Origin: Trypanosoma brucei
Taxonomy: Eukaryota
Length of the DNA: 64,000 nucleotides
NCBI GenBank assembly: GCA_000002445.1
Contig: CH464491.1
Span: forward strand, 2,112,001-2,176,000
Reading direction: 5' to 3'
Part shown: piece by piece, positions 16,840 through 45,593 of the stretch
Numbering within the stretch: the stretch's first letter is position 1
Layout: each line of letters opens with the position of its first letter
The notes under the pieces: model-generated
The model's database searches: none
What the model saw: only the letters and a program-made list of their open reading frames with translations
What the model was told of the DNA's origin: nothing
Position numbers and translations under genes: made by a program

Positions 16840-17625
16840 TTAGCCTCTATAAGAGCCCCGCCCCCTCCTCGCATTATGTTGCCTTCCTTCCCCCATTCCA
16901 GCGAAACCAGGGATTCCACCACTTTCTTGACGGTTGGAGTGAGTTGCACGACCCGCGGGTGGAAGGTTTTGCTGCGGCAATGGTCTCGGTTGTTGCTGCC
17001 GAATCTTGAAGGGCTGGGGCTCTTCGTTGAAGCGGTTCTGGATTGGGTTTTCGTGTCCCGTGCCAGAGTTCAAATTCCCATTCTTGTTATTGGGGTTGAA
17101 CACGCGCACACCACGCCGTTTGCCCGGTGAATCGCTCTCGCTGAAGCAAAGGAAGCGACTTTGAGTGTTGCCTTCGAATTTCTCACGCACTTCTTTGTCG
17201 CGCTGCGCCGCAGAATCGACAGGTCGTAGGCGCTGCAATTCAGCACAATCTCGCTCCCTCACCTCACGAGGATGGTTCAAAGTTGGTGCATCGGTGTTCC
17301 ACGAAAAAATATTCAGCCCACCTCGCGCAAGGCGGTCCTTTGACAGGCGCCGGGTATCCACCGCTTGTGTTTGGGCTTGCGGCTGCAAAGGTAAATCATA
17401 ACCTCCACCGTTCATATCGACGTGTTCGTATGCATCATGACCCCCGTAACCTGGTGGAGGCCCGTCCATGTACGACTGGGGGGCATCTCGGAGTAAATCC
17501 TCCTGACCGGCGTATGGGGACTCAAGGAAGGTCGGGTGCTTATCGTATGCATCTACATGCTGAGCCCGGCCCAATTCATCAGTGCGACCCCTCAGGTCAC
17601 TTTCATAGTCGTAGTTGGCAAGCAT
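16840..17625 (-). CDS. Hypothetical low-complexity or disordered protein with an RG-rich C-terminus.
   Basis: The 261-aa ORF is rich in P, Q, G and R and ends ...ARRGRGSYRG. It lies on the same strand as its neighbours. I recognise no domain. Confidence 0.35.
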   Translation of the reverse strand: MLANYDYESDLRGRTDELGRAQHVDAYDKHPTFLESPYAGQEDLLRDAPQSYMDGPPPGYGGHDAYEHVDMNGGGYDLPLQPQAQTQAVDTRRLSKDRLARGGLNIFSWNTDAPTLNHPREVRERDCAELQRLRPVDSAAQRDKEVREKFEGNTQSRFLCFSESDSPGKRRGVRVFNPNNKNGNLNSGTGHENPIQNRFNEEPQPFKIRQQQPRPLPQQNLPPAGRATHSNRQESGGIPGFAGMGEGRQHNARRGRGSYRG

Positions 17626-18569
17626 CTTGGTAATATAATATTTATATTATATTCTCTGCTCCAAAATAATATCACCTTTTGTCTTTATTATTCCTCACTT
17701 CTACTTGCTTCTCTTGTTTGCTCCTACCTGAGCTTTATTATGTCAAGGCGAGATTCAACGTAACTCTCTTCTAATAACCGATCGATGCGCGGCGATTTCT
17801 ACCTTACGTGAACAGTAAAGCTGAGTTATTTTTATTTTAAGAGCTTTCCACTGTTTCTATCGCTTACCTCTTAGTCACAATTCTTCAGGATGTTCTACTA
17901 TATCAGTGGCATTATAATGCAAGTGAAAAGCACACGATCAGAGACGTGAACACGTACGCACGTACAAAGAGCATAAAGTAAATGACATTGTCAAGTGATT
18001 ATTCCACTCACTCATCCGCCTTCACCACAATAATAAATTAATAACGGCGCCCACCACCCACAACTGGGACAGCCACTAAGAAACACAAAGCAAGGGAAAC
18101 CACATAACCTCACTTCCACAAAACAAAGCACGCGCACGTGCAACCCCGCCAACACGCTCACAGACAATTAGACTATAAAACGAGAAGGGGGAAAATTGCA
18201 GAAAAACAAACCAGAAGAAACAACCACAAATAAAAAGAAAAACAGTAGATAGCACCAGATAAAAGTAATCCTAAAAAATATATACATACACATACATGCT
18301 TTAAGACATGAAAATACTAAAGTAATACAAAAGTAAAAGCAAAAGTGCAAAAGTGTTTCGAAACCGATAAAAGTAAGATTGAAAACAATAATACATATAA
18401 AATTATTGAAAACATAAAAATAAGAACAAAACCCGGTCAAATTCAAAAAAAGCAAGAGCAACAAATTAATAAAAGAAGAAAATTTCAAGAAATTAAAAAT
18501 ATATATCAGAAAATCAGATAAATATTAAAGGCCGACAGCACTTAACAAGACTCTCAATAACATCCCGTT

Positions 18570-19477
18570 GACAACAAGAAATTTCATTGCAACCATAAAA
18601 TAGTCGCGCCTTCTTCACCACAGTTGGTGACTTTACAACCCATAAAGGGCCCTTACCGCGGATGCCAGATTTCTGTTGCACAAGCTTCAGACCCGTCATG
18701 ATATCAAAACCAAATCCAAGAGCATGAGCAATTTCATGTGCCGTCACGCGCATACTACTATCATGAGAAGTCAGCACTTCAGGTCCAATATTGAAAACAC
18801 CAACAGTAGGGCGATGATCCCTATACCTCGAACACGGACCTGCCCATGCTGCAGGTGAACCCATTGGACCAGCGGCACCATATAACACCATATCAGCATC
18901 GGAGACACCTGTAGTGCGGTGCTCCTGAGGAATGTTGAAGTATTTGCAAAATGTGTATACTTCAGGAACCTTTATTGGGCCTTGAACTGGTTGTACCATA
19001 AGGCGGTCGCTGTGCATCTTCAATGCATCCGGTATAACAACAGACAGAAGAGATTTCTTTTCTCTGTCAGCACGGAATCAGTTGTGCATTGTAGTACATG
19101 CCCCTAAAAATAGAGCGAGTCTGACCTTCCCTTTCACAATATTTCTTCGGGTCGTCAATATCCGATTTAAAAACCTGAAATCGAATGGGTTGCCATCCTG
19201 CCGTTGAACTCGTAACAATCGCATGCACCAGATCTCCTTTAGGTACTCGAGGCTCACCCACCACTGGAAGGTCCCGCATACTCATGTTTTTCATCAACTT
19301 GCCGAAGTCACACCGATGTGGTGGGATATTGCCTTCAGTCACATCACCACATAATATCAAACCCAATAAAAAGGGAATGACATAACGAGGGAACATAATC
19401 ACTGTCATATATACACACTCAAGCGTATCAATAGATATTTGCAAATCCTTTAAATACAGTTTGGATACCACATTCAT
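18570..19477 (-). pseudogene. GP63: GP63/leishmanolysin pseudogene: the N-terminal two thirds only, with a frameshift and a 3' truncation.
   Basis: Two ORF fragments, 19067..19477 and 18514..19023, are each near-identical to the intact copies and include HEIAHALGFGFDIM. Relative to copy 3 there is a 1-nt deletion near 19045 (cttttctctgtcag here versus cttttcctttgtcag in copy 3). Homology to intact copies stops near 18570, after the FYGCNEI region. The downstream ORF tail (SCCQRDVIESLVKCCRPLIFI) is junk. Confidence 0.8.
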
Positions 19478-20441
19478 ATAATAAAAAGAAATAGAAACAG
19501 AAATGTAAAGACATAGGAAATAAATATATATATAATAACAACAATATATTATTTGATTACTATCATTGTGAATGATGATAAAGGTGTGAAAACTCCATGC
19601 TCAAGTAAAGAGGGTTAGGAAAATAATACAAAAAAAAGGATCATGAGTGTCCAATGAGAGCAGCGCATCACACACGTGGGAATGATTTCGCCTTATAACA
19701 AGAAACAAATGAAAGGTTCATGCACATTAAATGAAAGAAACCAGTGAGAACACAGCACATGAAGGAATTACGTACATCAAAAGAAAAGCAAAGTACAAAG
19801 GAAAAAGAAAAAGATATATTCTTCAGATATGACAGTTACCGCTGTCGCAAGAGGAAAAAAAAGAAGAAAAAATAAAACAGAAGAATTGAACAAAGACATA
19901 ATATTCATTGATGAAAATTTATGATATGAAACATTAAACTGCTCTATCTACATCAAGCAGGAAACCATTTGATATTCCACACACATAAATTATTGTGATG
20001 TGCGCAACCGAAATGGAAAGATACGGAAGACAGTGCTGATATACATCAATACCGTCACCTCCAGGCAAAACAGTACCCAAAACATTATGTAGGTTTTCCA
20101 TTATTCATTTCAATATATCCACACAATTTCCAATTTAAGAGCAATAAAACAAACATTCAATATTTATGTATATATATATATATATATATGCTATCACTTT
20201 ACACTGGAACAGCAACAAGTGTCGTGTGATGTTGTCGTCAAAGAGATATGACGTGATAAATGACAGCGGTTCCCCATTCATAAAACAGCATGTTTGTACA
20301 TCATGTGAAAGAAAGAAAGATTGGTTAGTAATTCAACTGTTAATAAAGCACACCAAAACTCTCAACAAATGCCTGTGAAATCCAGCTAAGAAAGGCATCA
20401 TAAAGTAATTGCAGTAACAGTGCCGCTTACGCATAATATTA
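19478..20441. repeat. GP63 array inter-copy spacer unit, repeated at 23580..24485 and 26290..27218.
   Basis: The three spacers share long near-identical blocks by eye, for example aataacaacaatatattatttgattactatcatt, gggaatgatttcgccttataacaagaaacaaatgaaaggt and aaagcacaccaaaactctcaacaaatgcctgtgaaat. Each contains a short (TA)n. Confidence 0.85.
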
Positions 20442-22307
20442 TTATAGGGAAAAAGAAACGAAGAGTAGCATATTCCACATAAAATAACTTGAATGTACAG
20501 CCCATGATGCTGCACCTGTCCCGTGCTCTGTCTCTTCAGAATCCACTGGGGAAGGCGCTTCGGAAGATTCTTCTGAAGATTCTTCGGAAGATTCTGCAGA
20601 AGATCCTTCAGAAGATCCTTCGGAAGATCCTTCGGAGGATCCTTCGGAAGATCCTTCAGAAGATCCTTCGGATGCCACCGCCGAAGGGACGGTGACCCGC
20701 TTCAACACCTTCGAGGCACACAACTCAGACTTTTTAGGACACCGAACATAACCGCTGGAGAATGTCACATTAGATGTCACATTTCTTCCCTCGGGGCAAT
20801 CATACCATTGGTCGTCATCAACAAAACGCACCTGAAGAGTATCTGGTTCACAATTCACCTCAACACAAATATCAGCAATTGCAACTATAACGTTCTTCAG
20901 CTTGAGACCCGTAGCTTTCACACACCGTGAGTTAGGTCCAATGCGACTTCCCCACATTGCATGCGGATGACCATCAGTGCAGCCGGTATTGGAGAAGAGA
21001 CGTATGTAAGGGCAGAAATCAAGCAGTTCATTGGGGCCACCCTTATTGACACGAGAAAAGTACCGATATTGCTGGGGTATTGGAGTCCTGTATAAATAAA
21101 TGGCACATGATCCCAACCCACCCCTGTCGGCGGTACAAACATTTTCACCCTTCTTTGTCGCAGATGTACAAAACACATCAGGAAAGTTGCTCTTTCCACT
21201 CTCTATACGTGTGTGTTGCAGAAAATCACAGCCTCGTCCTTTACCAAAATGCATATCTTCTTCAGTTCCCCATCTGGCTTTGTAAAAACCCATATCCTCA
21301 AATAATGCCATAGTTAGCACACTATAACGGCCTCCATCGCTGCCTTTTATACCAGCCATCATCTCTTCCATTGCGATCCTACGCTCCCAATGCGATCTAA
21401 CCGTACCCCTGCCACCTTCATCCTCCAGTTCCACACCCGTGATATCATTGCAACCATAAAATTCCTGCGCTTTCTTTACCACAGTTTGTGACTTTACAAC
21501 CCATACAGGGCCCTTACCGCGGATGCCAGATTTGGATGCCACAAGCTTCCGCTCATTCATAATATCAAAACCAAATCCAAGAGCATGAGCAATTTCATGT
21601 GCCGTCACACGCATACTACTATCATGAGAAGTCAGCACTTCAGGTCCAATATTGAAAACACCAACAACAGGGCGTCCATCCCTCAACTTCGCACACGGAA
21701 CAGCCCATGCTGCAGGTGAACCCATTGGACCAGCGGCACCATATAACACCATATCAGCATCGGAGACACCTGTAGTGCGGTGTTCCCTGGGAATGTTAAA
21801 GTTTTTGCAAAACGATTGCTCCCTATGGACCGTGATTCGTCCCTTTACTGGTTGTACCATGAGGCGATCGCTGTGCATCTTCAGTGCATCTGGTATCACA
21901 GCATCCAAAAGAGATTTCTTCTGCGATGTCAGCAAGGATTCAGTTTTGCATTTGTAGTAGATGCCCCTAAAATTAGAGCGAGTTTCACCCACATTTCCAC
22001 AATATTTCTTCGGGTCCTCAATATCCGATTTAAAAACCTTAAATCGAATGGGTTGCCATCCTGCCATTGAACTCGTAACAATCGCATGCACCAGATCTCC
22101 TTTAGGTACTGGAGGCTCATCCACCACTGGAAGGTCCCGCATACTCATGTTTTTCATCAACTTGCCGAAGTCACACCGATGTGGTGGGATATTGCCTTCA
22201 GTCACATCACCACATAATATCAAACCCAATAAACAGGGAATGACATAACGAGGGAACATAATCACTGTCATATATACACACTCAAGCGTATCAATAGATA
22301 TTTGCAA
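20442..22307 (-). CDS. GP63: GP63/leishmanolysin (major surface protease, M8 zinc metalloprotease), copy 2, intact.
   Basis: The 621-aa ORF has the HEIAHALGFGFD zinc-binding HExxH motif, the conserved Cys pattern and a signal peptide (MFPRYVIPCLLGLILCG). It has a C-terminal (SEGSS)n tail and then a hydrophobic GPI-signal-like end (WNMLLFVSFSL). The ORF may start at a later Met; MQISIDTLECVYM precedes the signal peptide. Confidence 0.9.
   Translation of the reverse strand: MQISIDTLECVYMTVIMFPRYVIPCLLGLILCGDVTEGNIPPHRCDFGKLMKNMSMRDLPVVDEPPVPKGDLVHAIVTSSMAGWQPIRFKVFKSDIEDPKKYCGNVGETRSNFRGIYYKCKTESLLTSQKKSLLDAVIPDALKMHSDRLMVQPVKGRITVHREQSFCKNFNIPREHRTTGVSDADMVLYGAAGPMGSPAAWAVPCAKLRDGRPVVGVFNIGPEVLTSHDSSMRVTAHEIAHALGFGFDIMNERKLVASKSGIRGKGPVWVVKSQTVVKKAQEFYGCNDITGVELEDEGGRGTVRSHWERRIAMEEMMAGIKGSDGGRYSVLTMALFEDMGFYKARWGTEEDMHFGKGRGCDFLQHTRIESGKSNFPDVFCTSATKKGENVCTADRGGLGSCAIYLYRTPIPQQYRYFSRVNKGGPNELLDFCPYIRLFSNTGCTDGHPHAMWGSRIGPNSRCVKATGLKLKNVIVAIADICVEVNCEPDTLQVRFVDDDQWYDCPEGRNVTSNVTFSSGYVRCPKKSELCASKVLKRVTVPSAVASEGSSEGSSEGSSEGSSEGSSEGSSAESSEESSEESSEAPSPVDSEETEHGTGAASWAVHSSYFMWNMLLFVSFSL
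20563..20685 (-). repeat. A 15-bp tandem repeat inside GP63 copy 2 encoding (SEGSS)n.
   Basis: About 8 units of ggaagatccttc(a/g)ga with minor variants are seen directly on the + strand. They translate on the minus strand as SEGSSEGSSEGSS...AESSEESSEESSE. Confidence 0.9.
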
Positions 22308-23000
22308 TTCCTTAACTTACAGGATAGAAACTACATACATAGAATAAGAAAAGGAAATAGAAATAGGAATGCAAAGCCATAGGAAGATATGTAAGGTCAG
22401 AGTTAGAAATGTAACAACACACAAAATATTAATTTGTGTGTTACTGATAATGCAACCGAAGTTGTACTCAAGCATGAAAAAATAGGCATAATACTGCACA
22501 GTAACCGCATCTCAAAATACAGCACATGCGTGTGTATAGGATATATAACCTGCTGTCGCATCAGTACGCAATGGTGTCAATCAAACAATACTATCAGAGG
22601 TATCGGAGTGATTGCGGTTGTTGAACATCACGCACAACAGACATAGTTACCACATATTGTAAAAGGGAAGGAATCAACAAGGGAAAAGGAGAGGAATATG
22701 GGAAAGGGAAAGGGAAGGAAATGAATGTTGTCAGACAGGGATAACTGTTAGCAGTCGTTACTCGTCAATGTTAAATCAGAAGAGGTGTCAGGTAAACGTG
22801 TCTTCTCATCATAAGGTACAAGATTTCATTATGCGAGCACTTCCATAGAGACCTCTCTGTAACTCATGGTTGGGACTCGATAATCCAAAAATAACAACAA
22901 ACACAGATGTATCGCTACAAGTTAACTCTCTCTTAAAGGATATATTTATATATTATTACTAATTTTAGTATACCATACAGTATGATAACTAAATAAACAT
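22308..23000. repeat. GP63 5'-flank unit, repeated at 29118..29810.
   Basis: The two blocks are near-identical over about 690 bp, from the GP63 start codon outward. Identity ends abruptly after ...gataactaaataaa(a)cata (22981..23001 and about 29802..29822). Confidence 0.85.
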
Positions 23001-23336
23001 AGTTTCTGTAGAGAAAGTATAGGACGCATAACCATCCGTTACAGGATCCCACAACCCCCTGGAGGCAATTCTTATTCCCTGATTTACGGCCTCAGTGACG
23101 GTGGCATGAGTAACAAATTTATAACGCTCATATCCCAGGCGCACAACACGCTGCTGAATCTCACTACATATTTCTTTTATTAGTGGTTGTACATCCTCAT
23201 GCACATACGCCCGATCCCCAACGAGTGTTTGGCACACCTTTTTCAAAATGGGCTCAACGGCACTCGCTCGGAATTTAGTTCCGGGACGCGGCAGCTTAAT
23301 GGCAGGGCGCGGGGCTTCATCGTACTCGTTCACCAT
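22989..23336 (-). CDS. DYNLT: Tctex1-family dynein light chain; the C-terminus appears short relative to the family.
   Basis: The 115-aa ORF aligns to human DYNLT1 over its C-terminal half. YKFVTHATVTEAVNQGIRIASRGLWDPVTDGYASYTFSTETMFI matches [45 protein letters not shown]. Our protein stops about 9 aa before the usual end (...IVSAFGLSI). Confidence 0.7.
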   Translation of the reverse strand: MVNEYDEAPRPAIKLPRPGTKFRASAVEPILKKVCQTLVGDRAYVHEDVQPLIKEICSEIQQRVVRLGYERYKFVTHATVTEAVNQGIRIASRGLWDPVTDGYASYTFSTETMFI

Positions 23337-24485
23337 CAGCTACGTTTGACTTCCACTTCTTTCCTCTTCTTCTTTTCTCTTGTTTTGTCCCGGGTGCTCG
23401 TGTGGATACGCGTAGACGCCTTTCTTATTTCTTCCTAAAGGCAAACAAATTGGTTAATATTCTAAACGATCACGAGCACAGATCAGTAAACACCTACACG
23501 AGGAGTATACTTCGATTTTAGAAACGAACAGAAAAGCAAAAGCAATGGCAAAAAAGAATACCAAACGAAGAAATGGAACATCATATGAATATATATAATA
23601 ACAACAATATATTATTTGATTACTATCATTACGTTAGGTAAAAGATTTATGCACTCCATGCTCAAGTAAAAGAGGGTTAGGAAAATAATACAAAAAAAGG
23701 ATCATGAGAGTCCAATGAGAGCAGCGCATCACACACGTGGGAATGATTTCGCCTTATAACAAGAAACAAATGAAAGGTTCATGCACATTATATGAAAGAA
23801 ACCAGTGAGAACACAACACACCAAGAAATTACGTACATGAAAAGAAAAACAAAGTAGAAAGATAGAAGAAAGAGATATTATTCAGATATGGCTGTAACCA
23901 CTGTCGCAAGGGGAAAATAAGAGAAGAAAAAATATAAGAAAACTATTCAACAAAGACATAATATAGGCTGATAAAATTTATGATATGAAAGGTTAAGCTG
24001 CTCTATCTACATCAAGCAGACACCCATTTGATATTCCACACACATAAATTGTAGTAACGTGCGCAACCGAAATGGAAAGATACGGAAGACAGTGCTGCTG
24101 TATACAATACCGTCACCACAAGGCAAAGCAGTAACAGAAATACATTTTTCCAGCTATTCTTTCTCTCGTTTCAGCGTATCCACACAATTTCCAATTTAAG
24201 AACAAGAAAACAAACATCCAATATATATATATATATGTTATCACTTTACACTGCAACAGCAACAAGTGTCGTGTGATGTTGTCGTAAAAGAGATATGATT
24301 TGATAAACGACACCAGCTCCCCATTCATGAAACAGCGTGTTTGTACATCATATGAAAGAAGGAAAGATTGCTTAGTAATTCAAGTGTTAATAAAGCACAT
24401 CAAAACTCTCAACAAATGCCTGTGAAATTCAGTAAAGAAAGGTATCATAAAGTAATTGCAGTAAGAGTGCCGCTTATGCATCATA

Positions 24486-26207
24486 TTATAATAGGGAAAA
24501 GCAAGAAACGAAGAGTAGCATATTCCACATTAAATAACATGAATATGCTGACCATGATGACGCGCCCTTTCCTTGTCCCTTTTGTGCCGAAGTGGTTTGC
24601 TTTACCACCTTTGAAGCACACAACTCAGACTTTTTAGGACACTGAATAGAACCGCTGGAGAATGTCACATTAGATGTCACATTTCTTCCCTCAGGGCAAT
24701 TATGCCATTGGTCGTCACCAACAAAACGCACCTGAAGAATATCTGGCTTACAATTCACTTCAACACAAATATCAGCCATTGCAACTATAACGTTTTTCAG
24801 CTTTAGACCCGTAGCTTTGACACACCGCGAGTTAGGTCCAATACGACTTCCCCACATTGTCTTCGGATCTCCATTAGTGCAGCCGGTATTCGAGAAGACA
24901 CGTATGTAAGGGCAGTAATCAAGCAGTTCACCGGGACCACCCCTGTTGCTCTGAGAAAAGTACTGGTAATGCGTAGGTAGTGAGGACTTATAAGTAGAAA
25001 TTGCACACGACCCCAGCCCAGTACGGTCAGATGTACAAATATTCTCACCTTGCTTTGTTTCCGACGTACAAAACACATCAGGAAAGTTGCTCTTTCCATC
25101 CTCTACACACCTCTTTTCCAGAAAATCACAGCCTCGTCCTTTACCAAAATGCATATCCTCTTCAGTTCCCCATTTGGCTTTGTAAAAACCCATATCCTCA
25201 AATAATGCCATAGTTAGCACACTATAACGGCCTCCATCGCTGCTTTTCAAACCAGCCATCATCTCTTCCATTGCGATCCTACGCTCCCAATGTGATTTTA
25301 CAGTTCCCTCACCACCTTCATCCTCCAGCTCCATACCTGTCAACGTATCACAACCATAAAATAGTCGCGCTTTCTTCACCACAGTTTGTGACTTTACAAC
25401 CCATACACCATTCTTACCACGGATCTCATTCCTCTTTTCCACAAGCTTCAGCTCCTCCATGATATCAAAACCAAATCCAAGAGCATGAGCAATTTCATGT
25501 GCCGTCACACGCATACTACTATCATGAGAAGTCAGCACTTCAGGTCCAATATTGAAAACACCAACAACAGGGCGCTTTCCCTTGAGCCTCGAACACGGAC
25601 CTGCCCATGCTGCAGGTGAACCCATTGGACCAGCGGCACCATATAACACCATATCAGCACCGGAAACACCTGTAGTGTAGTGATCCTGAGGAATATTGAA
25701 ATTATTGCAAAACGACTGCAGTTTAGGAACCTTAATTGGGCCCTGAACTGGTTGTACCATGAGGCGATCAGTGTGCATCTTCAGTGCATCCGGTATAACA
25801 ACAGACAGAAGAGATTTCTTTTCCTTTGTCAGCAAGGAATCAGTATTACACTGATAATTGGTACCCCTAAAGTTAGAGCGAGTTTCACCCACACTTCCAC
25901 AATATTTACTCCGATCCTCAATATCCGATTTAAAAACCTTAAATCGAATGGGTTGCCATCCTGCCGTTGAACTCGTAACAATCGCATGCACCAGATCTCC
26001 TTTAGGTACTGGAGGCTCACCCACCACTGGAAGGTCCCGCATACTCATGTTTTTCATCAACTTGCCGAAGTCACACCGATGCGGTGGGATATTGCCTTCA
26101 GTCACATCACCACATAATATCAAACCCAATAAAAAGGGAATGATATAACGAGGGAACATAATCACTGTCATATATACACACTGAAGCGTATCAATAGGTA
26201 TTTGCAA
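24486..26207 (-). CDS. GP63: GP63/leishmanolysin, copy 3, intact, with the shortest C-terminal tail.
   Basis: The 573-aa ORF has HEIAHALGFGFDIM and the same architecture as the other copies. It lacks an SEGSS tail and ends ...TTSAQKGQGKGASSWSAYSCYLMWNMLLFVSCFSLL. Confidence 0.9.
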   Translation of the reverse strand: MQIPIDTLQCVYMTVIMFPRYIIPFLLGLILCGDVTEGNIPPHRCDFGKLMKNMSMRDLPVVGEPPVPKGDLVHAIVTSSTAGWQPIRFKVFKSDIEDRSKYCGSVGETRSNFRGTNYQCNTDSLLTKEKKSLLSVVIPDALKMHTDRLMVQPVQGPIKVPKLQSFCNNFNIPQDHYTTGVSGADMVLYGAAGPMGSPAAWAGPCSRLKGKRPVVGVFNIGPEVLTSHDSSMRVTAHEIAHALGFGFDIMEELKLVEKRNEIRGKNGVWVVKSQTVVKKARLFYGCDTLTGMELEDEGGEGTVKSHWERRIAMEEMMAGLKSSDGGRYSVLTMALFEDMGFYKAKWGTEEDMHFGKGRGCDFLEKRCVEDGKSNFPDVFCTSETKQGENICTSDRTGLGSCAISTYKSSLPTHYQYFSQSNRGGPGELLDYCPYIRVFSNTGCTNGDPKTMWGSRIGPNSRCVKATGLKLKNVIVAMADICVEVNCKPDILQVRFVGDDQWHNCPEGRNVTSNVTFSSGSIQCPKKSELCASKVVKQTTSAQKGQGKGASSWSAYSCYLMWNMLLFVSCFSLL

Positions 26208-27218
26208 ATCCTTAACTTATAGGACAGAAACTACATACATAGAATAAGAAAAGGAAATAGAAATAGGAATGCAAAGCCATAGGAAACATATATATATATA
26301 TATATATAATAACAACAATATATTATTTGATTACTATCATTACGTTAGGTAAAAGATTTATGCACACCATGCTCAAGTAAAAGAGAGTTAGGACAATAAA
26401 ACAAAAAAAGTGGATCATGAGGGTCCAATGGGAGCAGCGCATCACACACGTGGGAATGATTTCGCCTTATAACAAGAAACAAATGAAAGGTACATGCACA
26501 TTATATGAAAGAAACCAGTGAGAATACAGCACATGAAGGAATTACATACATGAAAAGAAAAGCAAAAACAAAGTAGAAAGAGATAGCAAACAAGGAGATG
26601 TTCTTCAGATATAGATATTACACTGCACCAACGAAGAAAAAGAAAGAAGGCAAAAAAATAAAACAGAAGAATTGAACAAAGAAGAGAATATTGATTGGTA
26701 AAGATTATGATATGAAAGGTTAAGCTGCTCTATCTATATCAAGCAGACAACCATTTGATATTCCACACACATAAATTATAGTAACGTGCGCAACCGAAAC
26801 GGAAAGAGACAGAAAAACAATGTTGCTGTATAACAATACCGTCACCACAAGGCAAAGCAGTAACAGAAATACATTTTTCCAGCTATTCTTTCTCTTGTTT
26901 CAGTATCCCCGAACAATTTCCAATTTAAGAGCAAGAAAACAAACATCCAATATATTTATTTATATATATGTTATCACTTTACACTCCAACAGCAACAAGT
27001 GTCGTGTGATGTTGTCGTAAAAGAGATATGATGTGATAAACGACACTGGCTCCCCATTCATAAAACAGCATGTTTGTACACCATGTGAAAGAAGGAAAGA
27101 TTGCTTAGTAATTCAAGTGTTAATAAAGCACATCAAAACTCTCAACAAATGCCTGTGAAATTCAGTTAAGAAAGGTATCATAAAGTAATTGCACTAACAG
27201 CGCCGTATATGCATCATA

Positions 27219-29117
27219 TTATAATAGGGAAAAGCAAGAAACGAAGAGTAGCATATTCCACATTAAATAACTTGAATATGCTGACCATGATGATGTACCC
27301 GTCAACTGTCGCGTCATTGGGGAGGACCCCTCGGAATCCTCATGGGAAGACTCTTCAGAATATTCTTCGGAAAAATCTTCAGAAGCCCCCGTAGAAGACG
27401 TCGGAGATGCCCCTTCATAAGTTTCTGCGAAAGGCGCTGCGAAAGGTCCTGTTGAAGGCCCTGGAGAGGTAACTGGGAAGGCAACTGCGGAGGGGACTGT
27501 GATCCGCCTCAGAATCTTCGAGGCACACAACTCAGACTTTTCAGGACACTGAATAGAACCGCTGGAGAATGTCACATTAGATGTCACATTTCTTCCCTCA
27601 GGGCAATCATACCAACGGTTATCACCAACAAAACGCACCTGAAGAATATCTGACTCACAATTCACTTCAACACATATATCTGCAAGAGGAACACCTTTTT
27701 TTTTTTGAAGTCTAAGCCGAGTTCCTTTGACACACCGTGAGTTAGGTCCAACACGACTTCCCAGCATTACGTTCGGATTTCCATCAGTGCAACCGGTATT
27801 CGAAAAGAGGCGTATGTAAGGGCAGTAATCAAGCAGTTCAGCGGGACCACCTTTCTTTTCGTCAGCAAAATATCGATATTGCTCAGGTATTGGAGACTCA
27901 TGTGTCTGAATGGCACATGACCCCAACCCACCACGATCAGATGTACAAAAGATCTCAGTGTCCCTGGCCTTTGACGTACAAAACACATCAGGAAAGTTGC
28001 TCCTTCCATTCTCTACACACCTCTTTTCCAGAAAATCGCAGCCTCGTCCTTTACCAAAATGCATATCTTCTTCATTTCCCCATTTGGCTCTATAAAAACC
28101 CATATCCTCAAATAATGCCATAGTTAGCACACTATAACGGCCTCCATCGCTGCTTTTCAAACCAGTCATCATCTCTTCCATTGCAATCCTACGCTCCCAA
28201 TGTGAGTTTTTCGTACCGTCACCACCTTCGTCCTCCAGCTCCACACCCTTAATTTCATTACAACCATAAAATTCCTGCGCCTTCTTTACCACAGTTGGTG
28301 ATGTCACAACCCATACATCATTCTTACCACGGATGCCAGATTTCTTTTCCACAAGCTTCAGTTCCTCCATGATATCAAAACCAAATCCAAGAGCATGAGC
28401 AATTTCATGTGCCGTCACACGCATACTACTATCATGAGAGGTCAGCACTTCAGGTCCAATATTGAAAACACCAACAGTAGGGCGTTGACCACTTACCCTC
28501 GAACACGGACCTGCCCATGCTGCAGGTGAACCCATTGGACCAGCGGCACCATATAACACCATATCAGCACCGGAGACACCTGTAGTGTAGTGGTCTCTGG
28601 GAATGCTGAAGTTATTGCAAAATGTTTGTTTTTCATAAACCTTAATTGGGTCGTGAACTGGTTGTACCATGAGACGATCAGTGTGCATCTTCAATGCATC
28701 CGGTATAACAACAGCCAGAAGAGCTTTCTTTTCCTTTGTCAGCACAGAAGCAGTTGTACACTCGTAGTATGCGTCCCTGAAGTTAGAGCGAACTTGGCCT
28801 TCCTTTTCGCAATATTTGTTCCGGTTTTTAATGTCAAAGTCAAACACCTGAACTCGGATGGGATGCCATCCTGCCGTTGAACTCGTAGCAATCGCATGCA
28901 CCAGATCTCCTTTAGGTACTGGAGGTTCATCCACCACTGGAGGTTCCCGCACACTCATGTTTTTCATCAACTTACCGAAGTCACACCGATGCGGTGGGAT
29001 ATTGCCTTCACTCACATCACCACATAATATCAAACCCAATAAAAAGGGAATGATATAACGAGGGAACATAATCACTGCCATATATACACACTCAAGCGTA
29101 TCAATAGATATTTGCAA
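27219..29117 (-). CDS. GP63: GP63/leishmanolysin, copy 4, intact, with a distinct Ser/Pro/Glu-rich C-terminal tail.
   Basis: The 632-aa ORF has HEIAHALGFGFDIM. Its unique tail is ...PSAVAFPVTSPGPSTGPFAAPFAETYEGASPTSSTGASEDFSEEYSEESSHEDSEGSS, followed by a GPI-signal-like end. There is a T11 homopolymer at 27696..27706 on the + strand (A11 on the coding strand), encoding KKK at a point where the other copies read NVIV. Confidence 0.9.
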   Translation of the reverse strand: MQISIDTLECVYMAVIMFPRYIIPFLLGLILCGDVSEGNIPPHRCDFGKLMKNMSVREPPVVDEPPVPKGDLVHAIATSSTAGWHPIRVQVFDFDIKNRNKYCEKEGQVRSNFRDAYYECTTASVLTKEKKALLAVVIPDALKMHTDRLMVQPVHDPIKVYEKQTFCNNFSIPRDHYTTGVSGADMVLYGAAGPMGSPAAWAGPCSRVSGQRPTVGVFNIGPEVLTSHDSSMRVTAHEIAHALGFGFDIMEELKLVEKKSGIRGKNDVWVVTSPTVVKKAQEFYGCNEIKGVELEDEGGDGTKNSHWERRIAMEEMMTGLKSSDGGRYSVLTMALFEDMGFYRAKWGNEEDMHFGKGRGCDFLEKRCVENGRSNFPDVFCTSKARDTEIFCTSDRGGLGSCAIQTHESPIPEQYRYFADEKKGGPAELLDYCPYIRLFSNTGCTDGNPNVMLGSRVGPNSRCVKGTRLRLQKKKGVPLADICVEVNCESDILQVRFVGDNRWYDCPEGRNVTSNVTFSSGSIQCPEKSELCASKILRRITVPSAVAFPVTSPGPSTGPFAAPFAETYEGASPTSSTGASEDFSEEYSEESSHEDSEGSSPMTRQLTGTSSWSAYSSYLMWNMLLFVSCFSLL

Positions 29118-30463
29118 TTCCTTAACTTACAGGATAGAAACTACATACATAGAATAAGAAAAGAAAATAGGAATAGGAATGCAAAGCCATAGGAAGATAT
29201 GTAAGGTCAGAGTTAGAAATGTAACAACACACAAAATATTAGTGTGTGTGTGTTACTGATAATGCAACCAAAGTTATACTCAAGCATGAAAAAATAGGCA
29301 TAATACTGCACAGTAACCGCATCTCAAAATACAGCACATGCGTGTATATAGGATATATAACCTGCTGTCGCATCAGTACGCAATGGTGTCAATCAAACAA
29401 TGCTATCAGAGGTATCGGAGTGATTGCGGTTGTTGAACATCACGCACAACAGACATAGTTACCACATATTGTAAAAGGGAAGGAATCAACAAGGGGAAGG
29501 GAGAGGAATATGGGAAAAGGAAAGGGAAAGGGAAGGAAATGAATGTTGTCAGGCAGGGATAACTGTTAGCAGTTTTTACTCGTCAATGTTAAATCAGAAG
29601 AGGTGTCAGGAAAACGTGTCTTCTCATTATAAGGTATAAGATTGCATTATGCGAACACTTCCATAGAGACCTCTCTGTAACTCATGGTTGGGACTCGATA
29701 ATCCAAAAATAACAACAAACACAAATGTATCGCTATAAGTTAACTCTCTCTTAAAGGATATATTTATATATTATTACTAATTTTAGTATACCATACAGTA
29801 TGATAACTAAATAAAACATAACGAGAAGTGAATCAACCCTCCTTTACATCGAAACACCTTACGAAACAAGTATCTCGTTAGAAAACCGTAACGTGTCCGC
29901 AGCATGCTAAACGTCGCAGCAACTGTATTTGATATCATGCGAGAAACTGGAAATATGTTGTAAAAGAGAAAGAAAGGGAGAGAAAGCATGAAGAGTGAGG
30001 ACGGGACAGAAGAACTGAGAATGGTTGTCGAGCAGTAGTGACAGAGTTAGAACGCAGGGTCCTTTTGTGGTGAACTGCTCCTGTGTTCAGGAACCCAACT
30101 GCAGAGCACGCAGGTAACCCCTATTTTAGACACCGTGCGTCACATACATTATTAATCGGTCTTGTGGTGGAAAAGTAATGCCTGACTGGCGTTAGCGAAT
30201 ACGAGGGTTTCGGCTGCGTATATCGGCACTGACACGTCACAACGTGCTGATAGTGCTTCACCTTTTATCATGGCGGGTTACTTAACTTTAAAGCAGGGAT
30301 GTAGTACGGTCACCTCCCCATTGTGTAAACCTAAACCTCCTTACTCCCATTGTGGCTATGTAGTTTGCAAACAGACTTGTTGATTTTCCATTTCTTCTTC
30401 TTAGCCTTTTGACGTGGTGCTGTCAACTGGTTGAGCAGATTCGATGTAATTCACGCCCTCGTC

Positions 30464-37677: not shown

Positions 37678-38397
37678 TCATACACGACGCAGTCCCCGCC
37701 GCATACCGACAGCGAGAGCCAAATAACCCAAAACCCCCGGCGCAACCCCACCGAATCCGAGTTTTGTCGACACATGTCGCATTCGATTCTCCACAAGATA
37801 ACTTAAGTCGTCGGCATTTACCACACCATCACCATTGGCATCAGCAAGTTCTTTTACCTTTCGCTTGAAAGCCGCCTCCAGCAGCTGTTGCTCGATAAAA
37901 TTCCTCTGCGCCAAAAATTGCAAACCGGTGTAGACGGTGGCTCCGGCCAGTGTAATGAAATATTTCCTCGCATACACGCGTCGAATAACGCGACCGGTGA
38001 GGTATCCGGAGCCAATACCAACCAACCATTGACCAGCCCATGGAATTACCGTGTCGAGAGTGTCGCTGTTGTTACGAATTGCTCCTTTTAGTTTGCTTTC
38101 GTATATGGTTTGAAGGTCCCGTGGCGTGACATGTCCATCACCATCGGCGTCCAGCGCCTTGACAAGTCCTTCCGACATGCGCCTTCCCGCATCGCTCTCC
38201 ACAAACATGCGGACATCCTCATGGGAGGACATTCGGCCAATGAGTTTATCTTTCAAATCAAAAATGTAATTGAAGAGTGGAAGTGTCTCATCTTGTTTGT
38301 GTGGCCTCCCAAATGTTGCAATGTAGTCGAGAGCATTTTCCAAATCTTTAGAATTTAACATTTTCTGCCGCTGTTGCTGGTGTTGTTCCGTCGCCAT
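37678..38397 (-). CDS. EF-hand calcium-binding membrane protein.
   Basis: The 239-aa ORF has two canonical EF-hand loops, DADGDGHVTPRDL and DANGDGVVNADDL. They flank hydrophobic and glycine-rich putative TM segments (VIPWAGQWLVGIGSGYLTG, FITLAGATVYTGLQFLA). There is another hydrophobic C-terminal segment (VAPGVLGYLALAVGM). Confidence 0.6.
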   Translation of the reverse strand: MATEQHQQQRQKMLNSKDLENALDYIATFGRPHKQDETLPLFNYIFDLKDKLIGRMSSHEDVRMFVESDAGRRMSEGLVKALDADGDGHVTPRDLQTIYESKLKGAIRNNSDTLDTVIPWAGQWLVGIGSGYLTGRVIRRVYARKYFITLAGATVYTGLQFLAQRNFIEQQLLEAAFKRKVKELADANGDGVVNADDLSYLVENRMRHVSTKLGFGGVAPGVLGYLALAVGMRRGLRRV

Positions 38398-38399
38398 TT

Positions 38400-41300
38400 T
38401 TTTTGTTTTTTGTTTGTTTGTTGCTTGTGTTGTTTTGTTTTGTTTTTGCTTCCTAGTAAAAAAACTTCCACACGCACAAGTTATTCCACCCTTTTGGACC
38501 TCTGTTCCTTTTCTTTTTGTCTATGGATATGTTAATATGTATGGCCTTCAAAGGGGTCTTATGAAAGCAAAATAATAATAATAATAATGTTGCCTAAAAC
38601 CTTGAGTTTCCTTCCTTTTTCCCTTAATTAATAATGTTTGCACTAATAACGCAGTAGGGAAGCTGAAGGGGTGTGCAATTGAGAAGATTGAGGGTAAAAG
38701 AGAAAAAGAGAAAAAGAAATATAATAACCCCGCGCATAAGCGTGAAGGACAAAGTGACTGGAAGGGAGAAGGAAAATAAAGAAAAGGAGTGTGAAAAGAG
38801 GGGAAATAAGAGGGGGGGGAGGAAATGAGAGGAACCGTTAAATAGAAGATAGTGAAAGAACGTAAAAATTATTAGTATAAATAATAAAAAGAAACGTAAA
38901 TTTATTAAATGCTCTTCGTGGTGGGTGAAAGGCTACCATCATGCTCAGGGATCATGAAGAAAAGAAGCAGAGGGATTATTTTTTTTTTTTGCGGCATACG
39001 TGTGTTTGTGTTTTTTTTCGGAATGTGGGGAAGTGGCGGGAATTTGTTGTTTTTTTTTTTTTAAAAAAAAGAAAAAGAAAAACAGAAAGAGGAATGAAGC
39101 GCGTTGGAGGGGGGGGGGGGTGGCGGGCACAAGTGGTAATGAACAGCTACATCCCCACAGTTCAATAAACTCGTTTAATGTTGAACGGAGAATAATGAAT
39201 GGTAAAAACAGACAGACAAACAACAACGAAAAATAGAAGAAAAAGACGGAACAAAAATGAATATCGAAGCCCATGGCTTATCTCCACAATACGCAAATAT
39301 ATAAATATATAAATATATTTACATGTATTTATTGACTCCCTCCCCACACACACCTTCCTCCGTACCTCTGTACGCAAAGAAAAGAAAAAAAAAGAAAAAA
39401 TGCGAATGACCGCAGCCATCCACAACTCAAGTGAATGACGAAACAAACGAAAAATAATTCCTCCACTGGGGTTTGCCACCACTCGCAACCCGCTAGTCTC
39501 CCAACCACAATAAATGGAAACAATAGTAAGTGCAATGAGTAGAAAAAACAAAAAAACAAAAAAACAAAAAACAAAAAACAAAAAACATACGAATTGCAAT
39601 TTTAAAAAAAAACGACCAAAAAAGCGGGTAAAACAGGGGAGGATGGAAAGAAAGAGTTTAAGTGCCTCCTGCACTCCTTTTGTTCATTTATTTCCTTTTG
39701 GTTTTTTTTTCGTTTATTCAACGGTACAAACCGAAATATCTGTGTATTATTAGTTACTTTTTGTTCTCCTAAACCTACACTCTCAAACCAAGCAAACAAA
39801 CACAAACACAAGCACACACATACGTACATGAATTAATAACAATAACAATAATAATAGCACTCTGTTTTGTCGTGCATATTATATGTATGATGTATAACAT
39901 ATTTTCTCAAACAAAACAAAACAAAACACTTCAAGCAGTATCCTAAGCGCAAATTTTTTTTTAAAAAACGCCCGTAAAACCGAAAAAAAAACAAAGGGGA
40001 AGAGGAAGGGGGTGGGTGAATACCACCGGCATTGCCAGGTTGAATCAGTACCTCAAGCAACAGTTTGTGATGTATTAATTCAAATATTCGTGCGTGAAGC
40101 GTATAATTGAGTTTCTGGACACGCAAGCGGTGGGAATATGCAACACAAAAGAAAAAAAAGAAAGAAAAAAAAGAAAAAAGTGGTGTGGCATATAACGCAG
40201 TGAAACGGTACAGCAAAAACAGAAGGAATCGCATGAGGCATTCAACAAAAGTAGAAAAGGAAACAAAAGAATGAAACGAATTATTCGCCAACGCGAGTTT
40301 GAGTAAAAGGAAGAGATAATAACAAGTGGTTAACAGCTCGCCTCCCCTCCTCCTATACATACATAAACACATGTGCCTTTCCCCCAAAAAAAACCTTCTC
40401 AAAAAAGTAAGAAACGAAAAAAAAAAGTAAGAAGAAAAAAAAAACACCGAAAACGAGTGAGGAACAAAAAAAAACATCAAAGTAAATTTTAAAAAAAAAG
40501 AAAAGAAAAAAGAAAAAAGAGAAGACAAGCGGAACTCCAAAAGGTCCATTATTTCTCCTCCTCCGTCCCACCGGAACGCACCATTTGCAACAACAACAAC
40601 CAAAAAAAAAAGAAAAAAAATGAAACAAATAATGAGCCGCTCTCATGCAAGAGATAAAAAAAGGAGACGGGGGAGGTCGTATAAACAAGAGTTCGAAAAG
40701 AAACTAAAACGAACAAAAAGAAAAAAAGAAAACAAAAGAAGATATATGCGGTTATTAACAACTTGTCCCGCAGTACGTCCCGCAATATTTCAACATTTGG
40801 CCCCAGTTTGGATAATTTCATCAGACAATTTCATCACCGAACTCCTCATGACTAAATTGACCCAATGCAATTCTCATTATTATTTTATTATTTTGCTCTT
40901 TGTTGTTTCTTTTTTTTTTTGTCGACTTTCTTCACAACCTCAAAACTGTGAAATTCAAAGTGATCACTGTTGTTTGTTTTTCTTTGTTTATTGTACCCAT
41001 GTGAGAAGTACCAAATAAAGCAATGAAAGCAACAACCCCAGCAATAATAGTAATTAGTAATGAGAAAAACAGGAGAGATAATAAAAGAACTTTGAAAAAA
41101 AAAAAGAAAGAGAGAAATAAATACAACAAACAAAACACAACATCAATAAGAAGTAACAATAAATATAATAATTATAATAATTATAATTATGGTAATAATG
41201 ATGATAACAACAACAACAACAACAAATGGCCTAAAGGATGTATCACAGAGCTAACAACTTCCATGCCCCATCCAGAAAAAACTTCCAACTTTGGGCCACA

Positions 41301-41969
41301 TAATGCAAAAGAAGTGACGTAAGAGGTGAGAAGAAAAGAAGGATTTAAAAAGAAAAAAAAGTAAAAAAGAAGTAAAAAAGGATTACGGCAAACAACAACG
41401 ATGAAACCATTGGCCACCTTTTCAAAGTAAGTTTTATTGTTTTCATTTTTTTTTTCATTTTTTTAATTTTTTTTTTTTAAATCTTTCTTTTCTTCTCACC
41501 TCCTTCTTTGGCATACCCCCTGCCGCGGACTGTCACCTTTGCAGAAACTGGCAAGGTACTCGTCCTTTTAAAAAAAAAAAAACAATAAAAGATCAAAAAG
41601 AAAATTTTCGACTTTATCGAACTCTTTTACATGCACCATCAGCTGTGCTTCATTCTATCATTAAATATTTTTCTTTCTTTTGTTCTTTAAATATTACTCG
41701 AACACGTCAATAATTCCCAACAACTGCAATTGAGCCTCACAATACGCCTTGCCTCCTGTTACCGACACCGATGCGACACAACAAAGCCACATGTATATAT
41801 ATATATGTATATATATGTATATATATGACTACAAATACGAACACAGAATTTTTTTTCAGAAATCAGAGTAAAAACGTAAAAAGAAAAAAAAAGATGTTAG
41901 TAAATAAGGTTTCCCCCATCACTATTAGACGCGCCCTTATATTATACATAATTTCTTCCTAAACACACA

Positions 41970-42007
<38 letters not shown>

Positions 42008-43362
42008 TATATTATTATATATATATATTGCCTTATCCCGCCACTAAATAATAATCCATTAATCCACTAACCGACCCCGCATTAATGTCAAGACGATTTC
42101 TTCCCTCATTATTTTTCGTTCATTATTTTTTTTTAAATAATTTGCATATTCTTTCGTTTCTCTTCTTTTAAAAAAAAAAAAAATACTTTAATCATCCCTT
42201 AAAATACGGACAGTCGCGCAAAGCGGATAATGACAGTAACAACAACAACTACTACTACGTAAACGCCAGTATAATTTGCTTTTCAACTTTTTTTTTTTTT
42301 TACATCTGTACCGCAGTAATTGACACCAAAAAAAAAAAAGGTACACACGCAATAATGTGGGGGGGGGGAGAAAAAAAAAAACAGAAAGTTGTCAAAACGG
42401 TAAAAAAAAAAAAATGATGGGCGTCGCCCGCTCCTCCTCCTCCTCCTCTTCCACCTCCTTTTCACACACATCAGCAAATGTAAAGGCAACCGCAAATGGT
42501 AATTTTTCACACATATACACACAAAAAACAATAAATATTGTTGTTATTATTATTATTATTATTAGTTTTCTTTTCTTTAAAAAAAAAAAACATTTGCCGC
42601 AACGTACATACAGGAAAACATATGTGCGGAAAAAAGTAAGGAGGAGGAAATGGTGGGACCAAAATAAAGAAAAAACAAAAAAAAGAGAACAACAACAACA
42701 ATAATAATAATAATAATAACAGTGTTAATAGTAAGATATTATGAACTACATTAATAACGACAATAATAATAATAATAGTAATAATAATTTTAATAGTGAC
42801 TTACAAGGGGGGAAAAAAAAAACCACGGCGCGCACAGACACACAAACACATAAAAACATACACGTGTATGTGTGTATGCCTTCCCTGCTCTATTATTATT
42901 CTTTTTTTTTTTGTAAAATAATTAATTATATATTTTGTTATCATTAATTTGTTTTCTTTTCTTTGTTTCAATATATTTATTTTTCATTCCCTTTTGTTTG
43001 TCCGTTTTGTCAAAAATGCGGGACCCGTATATTTACATCTTTTGTTCCCACACATTCTTTCTTTCCTTCTTTTTTTCCTGCCCCCCCCCACCTCCCCTCA
43101 ACTGTAATGTAACTCACATCACATCACACATTACATGCGCTCAAACTTCACCTGGTCAAAAAAAAAAAAATGATGATAAAATGGGAGACAAACGTAAGAA
43201 CAACAACAAGAAGAAATAAAGTGAAATAAAAAGAAAAGAAAACATCCCGTCAATTTTCCATTTTATTCAACTGCTTGTGCATTTGATCTTATTTCTTTTT
43301 CTTTTCTCCCTCTTTTTCTCTCTTGTCATTATTATTTCTTCACTTCCCCTCTCCATTCCTCC

Positions 43363-43397
<35 letters not shown>

Positions 43398-45590: not shown

Positions 45591-45593
45591 ACC

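Follow-up and report, generated by a model that had tools for sequence, protein, structure and literature searches.

The stretch of the Trypanosoma brucei genome analysed here (GenBank assembly GCA_000002445.1, contig CH464491.1, positions 2,112,001 to 2,176,000; 64,000 nucleotides, henceforth called the window) holds an array of GP63 (leishmanolysin) surface protease genes, which is very probably the TbMSP-A (GP63-1) cluster of T. brucei brucei TREU927 chromosome 11, shaped by nested duplications and later recombination. Of its four members, which lie head-to-tail on the minus strand (copies 4, 3, 2, and 1 in the direction of transcription; Table 1), three are intact Peptidase_M8 genes and the last is a 5' gene fragment. 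Unit spacing, determined from the direct-repeat families between 18.5 and 29.9 kb, is 2863, 3900, and 2910 bp, and all self-BLAST matches had an E-value of 0, so chance is irrelevant. A first-pass annotation of the window had described a tandem GP63/leishmanolysin array with a dead, truncated terminal copy, a spacing of 2.8–2.9 kb (3.9 kb between copies 2 and 3), and a different gene embedded between copies 2 and 3; all of this was borne out by Pfam, exact protein matches, and alignments, and the embedded gene was identified via Pfam as a Tctex-1 dynein light chain. What had been overlooked is that copy 1 carries the same short-flank junction as copy 3, so that the array reads as a 2 × 2 nested duplication with microhomology junctions.

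Identity and setting of the cluster

Proteins of the window were matched exactly to EAN79735 and EAN79737–EAN79740 of the 5.26-Mb chromosome 11 record of TREU927, and protein look-up likewise gave exact matches for the Tctex gene, the upstream oxidoreductase-like gene, and the downstream 261-amino-acid (aa) gene. Copies 3 and 4 belong to the TbMSP-A subfamily by sequence, being identical to XP_828850 and XP_828851 (record name "Gp63-1 surface protease homolog"), and the nearest homologues in other strains carry the names major surface protease-A and MSP-A3. The assignment of Tb11.02.5610, Tb11.02.5630, and Tb11.02.5640 to copies 2, 3, and 4, respectively, is probable and follows the order of accessions. 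The cluster is bounded upstream by the oxidoreductase-like gene and downstream by a conserved hypothetical gene (261 aa, 16840–17625). All open reading frames (ORFs) of at least 150 aa in the window lie on the minus strand, a bias that fits a single trypanosomatid polycistronic unit.

With at least three head-to-tail paralogues on one strand and common intergenic units, the locus is a tandem gene array, and one that is already known, annotated, and catalogued, because it is listed as array number 126 ("gp63, Tb11.02.5640") in the T. b. gambiense genome paper (Jackson et al. 2010, PMC2854126). Four annotated copies are given there for T. b. brucei and two for T. b. gambiense, and six breakpoints were found with GARD (genetic algorithm for recombination detection). 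Tb11.02.5610, Tb11.02.5630, and Tb11.02.5640 have been labelled MSP-A, with 528 reads per kilobase per million (RPKM) in bloodstream versus 16 RPKM in salivary-gland parasites, i.e., a 33-fold difference (PMC3998935), and their mRNAs were 2.3- to 4.2-fold higher in cultured bloodstream than in log-phase procyclic forms (PMC2771046). Enrichment of MSP-A mRNA in bloodstream forms is also supported by PMC2443814. The junction-level history, the truncated Tctex gene, and a link to the unplaced Tb11.0300–0410 contig were not found in the literature covered, which did not include LaCount 2003.

For comparison, contigs of three further assemblies were used, namely L001 (T. b. equiperdum IVM-t1), L002 (T. 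b. gambiense DAL972), and L011 (T. equiperdum OVI).

Intact genes and their proteins

Pfam Peptidase_M8 matches supported the three intact minus-strand genes proposed at 20442–22307, 24486–26207, and 27219–29117, with the starts corrected: the proposed starts at 22307, 26207, and 29117 are upstream TTG codons, and the eukaryotic ATG codons lie at 22271, 26171, and 29081. Scores against PF01457 were 423, 456, and 439 bits for copies 2, 3, and 4, respectively (cut-off 21), each match covering approximately positions 26–527 of the 529-position profile. The exact 609-aa sequence of copy 2 was absent from the protein collection searched, and the deposited gene model of this copy may thus differ from the 609-aa ORF.

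Complete metzincin active-site motifs (HExxH, third His, and Met-turn) are present in copies 2–4. When copy 3 was aligned to leishmanolysin 1LML (E-value 3e-83), all zinc ligands were aligned, with HEIAH on chain residues 165–169, the His of SHWERR on chain residue 235, and the second Met of EEMM on residue 246; we take the HExxH, third His, and Met-turn positions to be His264, His268, His334, and Met345 in L. major numbering. In copies 2–4 the N-terminus (MFPRYxIPxLLGLILCG) and the C-terminal tail (SSYLMWNMLLFVSCFSLL) are both hydrophobic, and the predicted proteins fit a glycosylphosphatidylinositol (GPI)-anchored GP63 ectoprotease. The copies vary most just before the tail, and the length of the C-terminal stalk differs from copy to copy. 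Tandem Repeats Finder (TRF) detected a 12-nt repeat of 9.6 units in copy 2 (20558–20672), which encodes (SSEG/SSEE)n before the hydrophobic tail, and a weak 24-nt repeat in copy 4 (27320–27384), whose acidic, Ser-rich C-terminal extension is unlike that of copy 2; no repeats besides these two were found by TRF. Copy 3 is without an acidic Ser/Glu-rich extension.

Repeat units and the short-flank junction

The 111–114 nt upstream of the ATG are common to all four copies. Under the general model of trypanosomatid mRNA processing, this common 5' segment would be the trans-splicing signal and acceptor region, with the AG at 22332, 26232, and 29142 as the presumed acceptor in copies 2, 3, and 4. 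Further upstream, copies 2 and 4 alone share a long flank (L, 616–625 bp). The full shared 5' flank amounts to about 694 bp (22308–23001 matching 29118–29820), and its restriction to copies 2 and 4, proposed earlier for a unit of about 690 bp, was upheld by the self-matches and by the identity of the upstream portion (Table 1). A further segment upstream of L, U1', is also repeated in IVM-t1, where it lies behind an unrelated block, and delimits a larger duplicated unit on its left side.

Identity among the three 3' spacers is 85–91%, and they also match spacers in L001 and L011. Each (about 0.92 kb) presumably comprises the MSP-A 3' untranslated region (UTR) plus intergenic sequence; the three TbMSP families have been told apart by their 3' UTRs (PMC2034397).

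The junction of the 2.9-kb single-gene unit (J-beta) joins (TA)n to CTTCCTATGG and occurs twice, above copy 3 and above copy 1. In these two copies it reads TTATTATATATAT(AT)n followed by (G/T)TTTCCTATG. The claim that the region upstream of copy 3 jumps after about 85 bp into the 3' spacer holds, with the jump at 78–86 bp above the ORF start. Because the sequences across the two junctions align contiguously (Table 1), the short-flank junction is a single event kept in two copies. The spacer end belonging to copy 3 itself, at 23583, continues from TATATATATTC into ATATGATG of the Tctex upstream region, as in the original arrangement. The flank relationships described in the first-pass annotation hold in both self-BLAST and junction alignments.

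Table 1 Features of the MSP-A cluster (window positions; all on the minus strand)
Feature	Positions	Strand	Remarks
MSP-A copy 4, probably Tb11.02.5640	27219–29081	−	620 aa; identical to EAN79739/XP_828851; Pfam PF01457, E-value 4e-131
MSP-A copy 3, probably Tb11.02.5630	24486–26171	−	561 aa; identical to EAN79738/XP_828850; Pfam E-value 2e-136
MSP-A copy 2, probably Tb11.02.5610	20442–22271	−	609 aa, intact; Pfam E-value 2e-126
Copy 1, terminal MSP-A pseudogene	18580–19408	−	codons 1 to ~277 only; alignments, Pfam on both fragments
Common 5' segment, copy 2	22272–22385	−	114 nt; polypyrimidine tract (77% C/T over 52 nt), then AG at 22332
Equivalent 5' segments, copies 3, 4, and 1	26172–26285, 29082–29195, 19409–19519	−	alignment
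Long 5' flank L, copy 2	22386–23001	−	96.9% identical to 29196–29820
Long 5' flank L, copy 4	29196–29820	−	ancestral position, downstream of oxidoreductase gene
U1', ~230 bp extra upstream of L	29821–30052	−	IVM-t1 L001 9076–9315 matches window 30052–29820
3' spacer of copy 4	26294–27218	−	90.6% identical to 23583–24485; 85.2% to 19520–20441
3' spacer of copy 3	23583–24485	−	runs on into Tctex upstream region 23337–23582
3' spacer of copy 2	19520–20441	−	self-matches
Junction J-beta upstream of copy 3	26286–26293	−	3' spacer (TA)n joined to common 5' segment
Junction J-beta upstream of copy 1	19520–19525	−	shorter (TA)n; window 26682–25351 aligns contiguously with 19896–18590
Tctex-1 family dynein light chain (EAN79737)	22989–23336	−	115 aa; Pfam PF03645, E-value 1e-24
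Junction J-gamma	22998–23001	−	Tctex codon 113 joined to L start; TATG microhomology, 4 nt
Junction J-delta	18579–18580	−	end of GP63 homology joined to unique pyrimidine-rich intergenic sequence, upstream of 261-aa gene 16840–17625

The truncated Tctex-1 gene

The gene embedded between copies 2 and 3 is annotated as "dynein light chain, putative" and is not full-length; its Pfam match covers profile positions 2–90 of 95. Alignment with the 125–126-aa orthologues showed that the T. brucei protein ends in STETMFI-stop: the last 12 residues (HVNVVLYALYWE), which are conserved from Leishmania to T. vivax, are replaced by FI-stop read from the long 5' flank. The orthologues of T. vivax, T. grayi, T. 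rangeli, T. cruzi, T. melophagium, and Leishmania end in ST(E)SMHVNVVLYALYWE.

The breakpoint (J-gamma) was located by aligning window 23120–22880, window 30100–29700, and the full-length Tctex gene of L011. The window reads ACAGAAACTATG followed by TTTATTTAGTTATCATAC, the region above copy 4 reads CTCGTTATG followed by TTTTATTTAGTTATCATAC at the equivalent site, and the full-length T. equiperdum gene reads ACAGAAACTATG followed by CATGTAAATGTCGTG. This three-way alignment places the junction at codon 113 with TATG microhomology. J-gamma is also present in IVM-t1 (L001). A full-length 125-aa Tctex gene exists in T. equiperdum OVI (L011 999–1376), and window 23618–22998 is 97.4% identical to L011 716–1337; no full-length Tctex was found in the protein sets of TREU927, DAL972, or IVM-t1.

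The terminal fragment

Copy 1 was detected by Pfam as two pieces, both of them from the N-terminal third of Peptidase_M8: ORF 18514–19023 (E-value 1.6e-37; 130 bits, PF01457 profile positions 123–274 only), i.e., the 3' fragment, and ORF 19067–19477, a weak match. The broken reading frame was correctly recognised in the first-pass annotation; instead of the single 1-nt deletion placed near 19045, however, there are two 1-nt deletions, between 19091/19090 and 19063/19062, with a net loss of 2 nt, and the first premature stop (TGA, 19067–19069) is created by the deletion at 19091/19090. Likewise, homology does end mid-protein, at 18580 (codon 277 of copy 2) rather than near 18570, where it stops abruptly. 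The break was said to fall just after the zinc-binding region, which is accurate for HExxH (residue 225) but not for the third zinc-ligand His (residue 294), which would lie 17 residues beyond the break. The active site of copy 1 is therefore incomplete; besides the third His, the fragment has no Met-turn, C-terminal domain, or anchor signal, and no MSP-A 3' spacer.

DAL972 (L002) and IVM-t1 (L001) have an identical truncation junction (J-delta) and identical downstream sequence, but with the frame open, and the DAL972 fragment is called as a 295-aa Peptidase_M8 gene. Because these two assemblies share the truncation with open frames, the truncation is old and the frameshifts are specific to TREU927. 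In the 5' segment of the pseudogene (19449–19470, minus strand), the sequence that provides the first AG behind the polypyrimidine tract in copies 2–4, GTATGTAG, is replaced by GAATGTGG. If this first AG is the splice acceptor, the pseudogene would also be without a normal trans-splice site.

Divergence and mosaicism

Coding sequences of the paralogues are 80–89% identical in every pairing (73–81% at the protein level), long flanks 97%, and spacers 85–91%, with spacers 3 and 4 the closest at 90.6%. Synonymous divergence along the gene, determined by sliding-window Nei-Gojobori analysis, is patchy (0.03–0.58). The same analysis gave no sign of positive selection, with an overall dN/dS of 0.40–0.50 and no well-diverged window above 1.

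Between TREU927 and DAL972, identity is 99.3–99.7% in the oxidoreductase gene, 92–95% from about position 30050, and 71–93% inside the GP63 gene. The drop from 99% to 92–95% falls at U1', in the 30200–29901 interval. The pseudogene diverges between the strains likewise, and the downstream 261-aa gene is 99% identical. Nine MSP-A proteins of four strains are 72–86% identical without obvious orthologous pairs. In windows of 60 nt, the copies from strains other than TREU927 repeatedly switch their closest TREU927 relative, and sometimes none matches well. Such a pattern would be expected from recombination or gene conversion within a larger pool of diverged copies, a process described for T. brucei arrays in general (Jackson 2007; Jackson et al. 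2010, PMC2854126). The high identity of the long flanks as against coding sequences and spacers, the patchy synonymous divergence, and the patchwork character of the strain copies support the earlier suggestion of gene conversion or exchange among copies.

Duplication history

At least two duplication events with different breakpoints, as first proposed from the flanks, are evident at the nucleotide level in J-beta and J-gamma. In T. vivax the gene order is oxidoreductase, one GP63, 125-aa Tctex, RPS14, and in T. cruzi it is GP63, 125-aa Tctex, RPS14; copies 4 and 3 are therefore placed at the ancestral position and copies 2 and 1 regarded as the derived duplicate. The direction of the larger duplication is further supported by the Tctex break lying exactly at the flank boundary.

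The simplest history drawn from the junctions begins with a 2.9-kb tandem duplication, reaching from 114 nt above the ATG to the (TA)n at the end of the 3' spacer, which created the short-flank junction. A larger segment, from the long 5' flank into the downstream Tctex-1 gene, was then duplicated, joining codon 113 to L via TATG and producing a second gene pair (copies 2 and 1) together with a Tctex gene lacking its last 12 residues. The duplicated tract stops at GP63 codon 277 (18580), abutting unrelated sequence, and two 1-nt deletions later broke the frame of the fragment in TREU927 only. Relative ages are indicated by the occurrence of J-gamma also in IVM-t1 and of J-delta in both DAL972 and IVM-t1, with the frameshifts confined to TREU927. 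Afterwards, MSP-A copies, some of them located outside the window, probably exchanged sequence by recombination or gene conversion, giving the mosaic gene bodies and spacers. Each intact gene would carry its own processing signals, i.e., the 114-nt segment for trans-splicing and the spacer at the 3' end, and an MSP-A-type 3' UTR would confer mRNA abundance in bloodstream forms.

Several points weigh against this history. A plain model in which the pair was duplicated once predicts copies 4 and 2, copies 3 and 1, and spacers 4 and 2 as the closest pairs, none of which was observed, and it was rejected in that form. Spacers 3 and 4 are the closest instead, and coding identity is similar throughout, so that later conversion must be invoked; only with such conversion added does the pair-duplication model stand. 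For array 126, the pairwise homoplasy index (PHI) test gave p = 1, though GARD returned breakpoints (PMC2854126). The order of the larger duplication and the truncation at codon 277 could run either way, and the two could be one complex event. The trans-splice site, 3' UTR function, and GPI anchoring are predictions from sequence. Finally, the odds are about even that the TREU927 pseudomolecule is incomplete or collapsed at the MSP-A locus, as discussed below.

Alternative explanations and completeness of the reference

It was considered whether the truncated copy and the truncated Tctex gene mark a translocation or synteny breakpoint, with the ancestral Tctex-RPS14-P27 block transferred to a different chromosome and the GP63 fragment left as one side of a reciprocal exchange. 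T. vivax and T. cruzi do have Tctex, RPS14, and then 112- and 241-aa genes where the window has GP63 copies and unrelated genes, which speaks for such an event. We nevertheless regard it as very unlikely, since the sequence joined to Tctex codon 113 copies the region above copy 4, the signature of a duplication junction, and the ancestral block exists in the T. brucei clade with GP63-array sequence on both sides, in the same orientation, and continuing into the terminal array. A reciprocal product was sought at the RPS14 locus of the T. brucei clade (L008–L010), which turned out to be an unrelated paralogous locus without GP63 or Tctex remnants, and the translocation was dropped once L011 and L001 placed the ancestral block between GP63 arrays. 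A functional terminal fragment is similarly improbable. In strains with an open frame, it would code for a secreted N-terminal GP63 half of about 295–300 aa with a signal peptide and HExxH and no anchor; in DAL972 and IVM-t1 no stop interrupts the ORF between the ATG and a point just beyond the breakpoint, and the fragment has exchanged sequence with intact copies. However, an open frame of about 900 nt can persist passively via gene conversion from intact copies, and the parts missing from the fragment include the third zinc-ligand His, the Met-turn, the entire C-terminal domain, and the MSP-A 3' spacer, while in the TREU927 copy frameshifts break the reading frame and the first AG behind the polypyrimidine tract is missing.

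An even chance is given to the explanation that the four-copy arrangement is partly an assembly artefact. Here, the region would hold several MSP-A sub-arrays with a duplicated block of about 17–25 kb between them, and the pseudomolecule would have jumped via the L-flank, GP63, spacer, and Tctex repeats, leaving the block and three MSP-A genes to an unplaced contig. The earlier concern over array assembly errors was justified: DAL972 has a 100-N gap inside the array (L002 11398–11497), the IVM-t1 assembly has fewer MSP-A copies, and the window does not contain the genes that lie downstream of Tctex in T. vivax and T. cruzi, namely those for RPS14, the 108/112-aa protein, P27 (241 aa), and the ~300-aa protein. 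In the T. equiperdum assemblies (L011 1–12387; L001 1–9300), an intervening block contains RPS14, the 108-aa gene, P27, genes of ~300, 933, and 510 aa, and uS10. The order on L011 is GP63 3' spacer, Tctex upstream region, full-length Tctex, RPS14, 108-aa gene, P27, and further genes, and its far end is 99.3% identical to L001 1989–4008. From there, L001 leads onward through the 510-aa gene, about 230 bp of U1' (window 30052–29821), a long flank, GP63, and a truncated Tctex, after which another long flank, the pseudogene, and the 261-aa gene follow, i.e., the terminal array is reached through U1'. In TREU927, the block genes are known solely from a separate record, as CAJ17005 (P27, Tb11.0300), CAJ17006, and CAJ17009 (510 aa, Tb11.0340). 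In this record, consecutive accessions hold three more MSP-A genes, CAJ17011–CAJ17013 (taken to be Tb11.0360–0380), and then a second P27, CAJ17015, and CAJ17016; no main-chromosome EAN accession was found for any of these genes. About 17 kb of syntenic genes, a full-length Tctex, and three MSP-A genes are found in other assemblies or on an unplaced TREU927 contig, and none of them in the window. The window probably covers just one part of a larger MSP-A region, of which it may be a collapsed form. The drop in between-strain identity at the U1' boundary points in the same direction. Against an artefact, both novel junctions recur in other assemblies (J-gamma in IVM-t1, J-delta in IVM-t1 and DAL972), and the two short-flank junctions have (TA)n tracts of unequal length and different flanks and hence are not one sequence assembled twice. 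IVM-t1 and OVI disagree upstream of their shared segment, so those assemblies are imperfect too, and the unplaced contig could sit elsewhere or represent the other homologue.

The junctions described are real, as each recurs in one or more of the other assemblies, but the window does not show how many MSP-A genes TREU927 really has or in what order they lie. A broader reading, to which we give slightly less than an even chance, is that the chromosome 11 pseudomolecules of both TREU927 and DAL972 are collapsed, that the real region comprises at least three MSP-A sub-arrays separated by a duplicated block of about 17–25 kb with a full-length Tctex-1, RPS14, P27, and other genes, of which some are absent from the main reference gene set, and that the MSP-A genes are hypervariable cassettes without one-to-one orthologues between strains. 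The cassette part of this reading is based on MSP-A proteins that are 72–86% identical between strains versus more than 99% for the single-copy flanks.

Further observations

L001 91–1842 codes for a protein of 583 aa that matches PPR only faintly; in the cluster to which it belongs, IVM-t1, a 2.1-kb OVI contig, and short Logan contigs are represented, and TREU927 and DAL972 are not. IVM-t1 and OVI differ upstream of the shared uS10 segment. In DAL972, the GP63 gene beside the oxidoreductase gene (L002 9439–11335) falls into two ORFs (186 and 474 aa), with an annotated protein of 444 aa; the split could be a frameshift or a sequencing error. Window 38000–45600 is AT-rich (GC content 0.32–0.38 versus 0.45–0.50 elsewhere) and lies inside the same minus-strand gene cluster. 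No ATG-initiated ORF of at least 150 aa was found between 40549 and 45594, no tandem repeat in 38000–45600, and no match in an Rfam scan of the whole window.

Comparison with known arrays

The window represents the TbMSP-A (GP63-1) family and locus and shows no difference in kind from it. The TbMSP-B cluster on T. brucei chromosome 8 (Tb927.8.1610–1640) likewise consists of four head-to-tail GP63-family genes in a polycistron; its copies are 99% identical in nucleotide and protein sequence and expressed in both life stages (PMC2034397), whereas the MSP-A copies are 73–81% identical in protein, mosaic, and accompanied by a truncated pseudogene and an embedded foreign gene. In the arrays of ISG65, BARP, and other surface genes of T. 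brucei (Jackson 2007; Jackson et al. 2010), coding sequence varies more than the flanks. Arrays of this type share with MSP-A gene-conversion mosaics, subspecies-specific isoforms, and assembly-dependent copy numbers; unlike them, MSP-A is interleaved with a larger segmental duplication that duplicated and truncated the non-family Tctex-1 gene.

At the orthologous locus of T. vivax and T. cruzi (oxidoreductase, GP63, Tctex-1, RPS14, P27), the flanking oxidoreductase, GP63, and Tctex are ordered and oriented as in the window. A lone GP63 gene is accompanied in T. vivax by a full-length Tctex of 125 aa, T. cruzi carries a full and a partial GP63 gene together with two DUF423 genes, and neither has a junction of the long flank with Tctex. 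A T. congolense contig (L012), at 7.3 kb, is too short to take in the arrangement of GP63 and Tctex. Leishmania GP63 sequences are about 30–36% identical to the MSP-A proteins of the window. Leishmania GP63/MSP genes also form tandem leishmanolysin arrays, in which the classes are distinguished chiefly by their 3' UTRs and C-termini, with post-transcriptional regulation between life stages. Their copies are far more homogeneous within a class than those of MSP-A, and the chromosomal context is different.

Significance

The significance is modest in that MSP-A is a bloodstream-stage surface protease family whose genes are already annotated and catalogued. Added here are the nucleotide-level history of the array, its microhomology junctions, the clipped Tctex-1 gene, and evidence that the reference is incomplete. 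Any MSP-A copy numbers, expression estimates, or knock-out designs that rely on the reference are probably incomplete, as are those for Tctex-1 and the Tb11.0300–0410 genes. The extreme divergence of MSP-A between strains, compared with the near-identical single-copy flanks and in contrast to the 99% identical MSP-B copies, may merit study at the population level. Should the chromosome 11 pseudomolecules indeed be collapsed and the MSP-A genes behave as hypervariable cassettes, this would suggest that a surface protease of the bloodstream stage has been diversifying over the long term.

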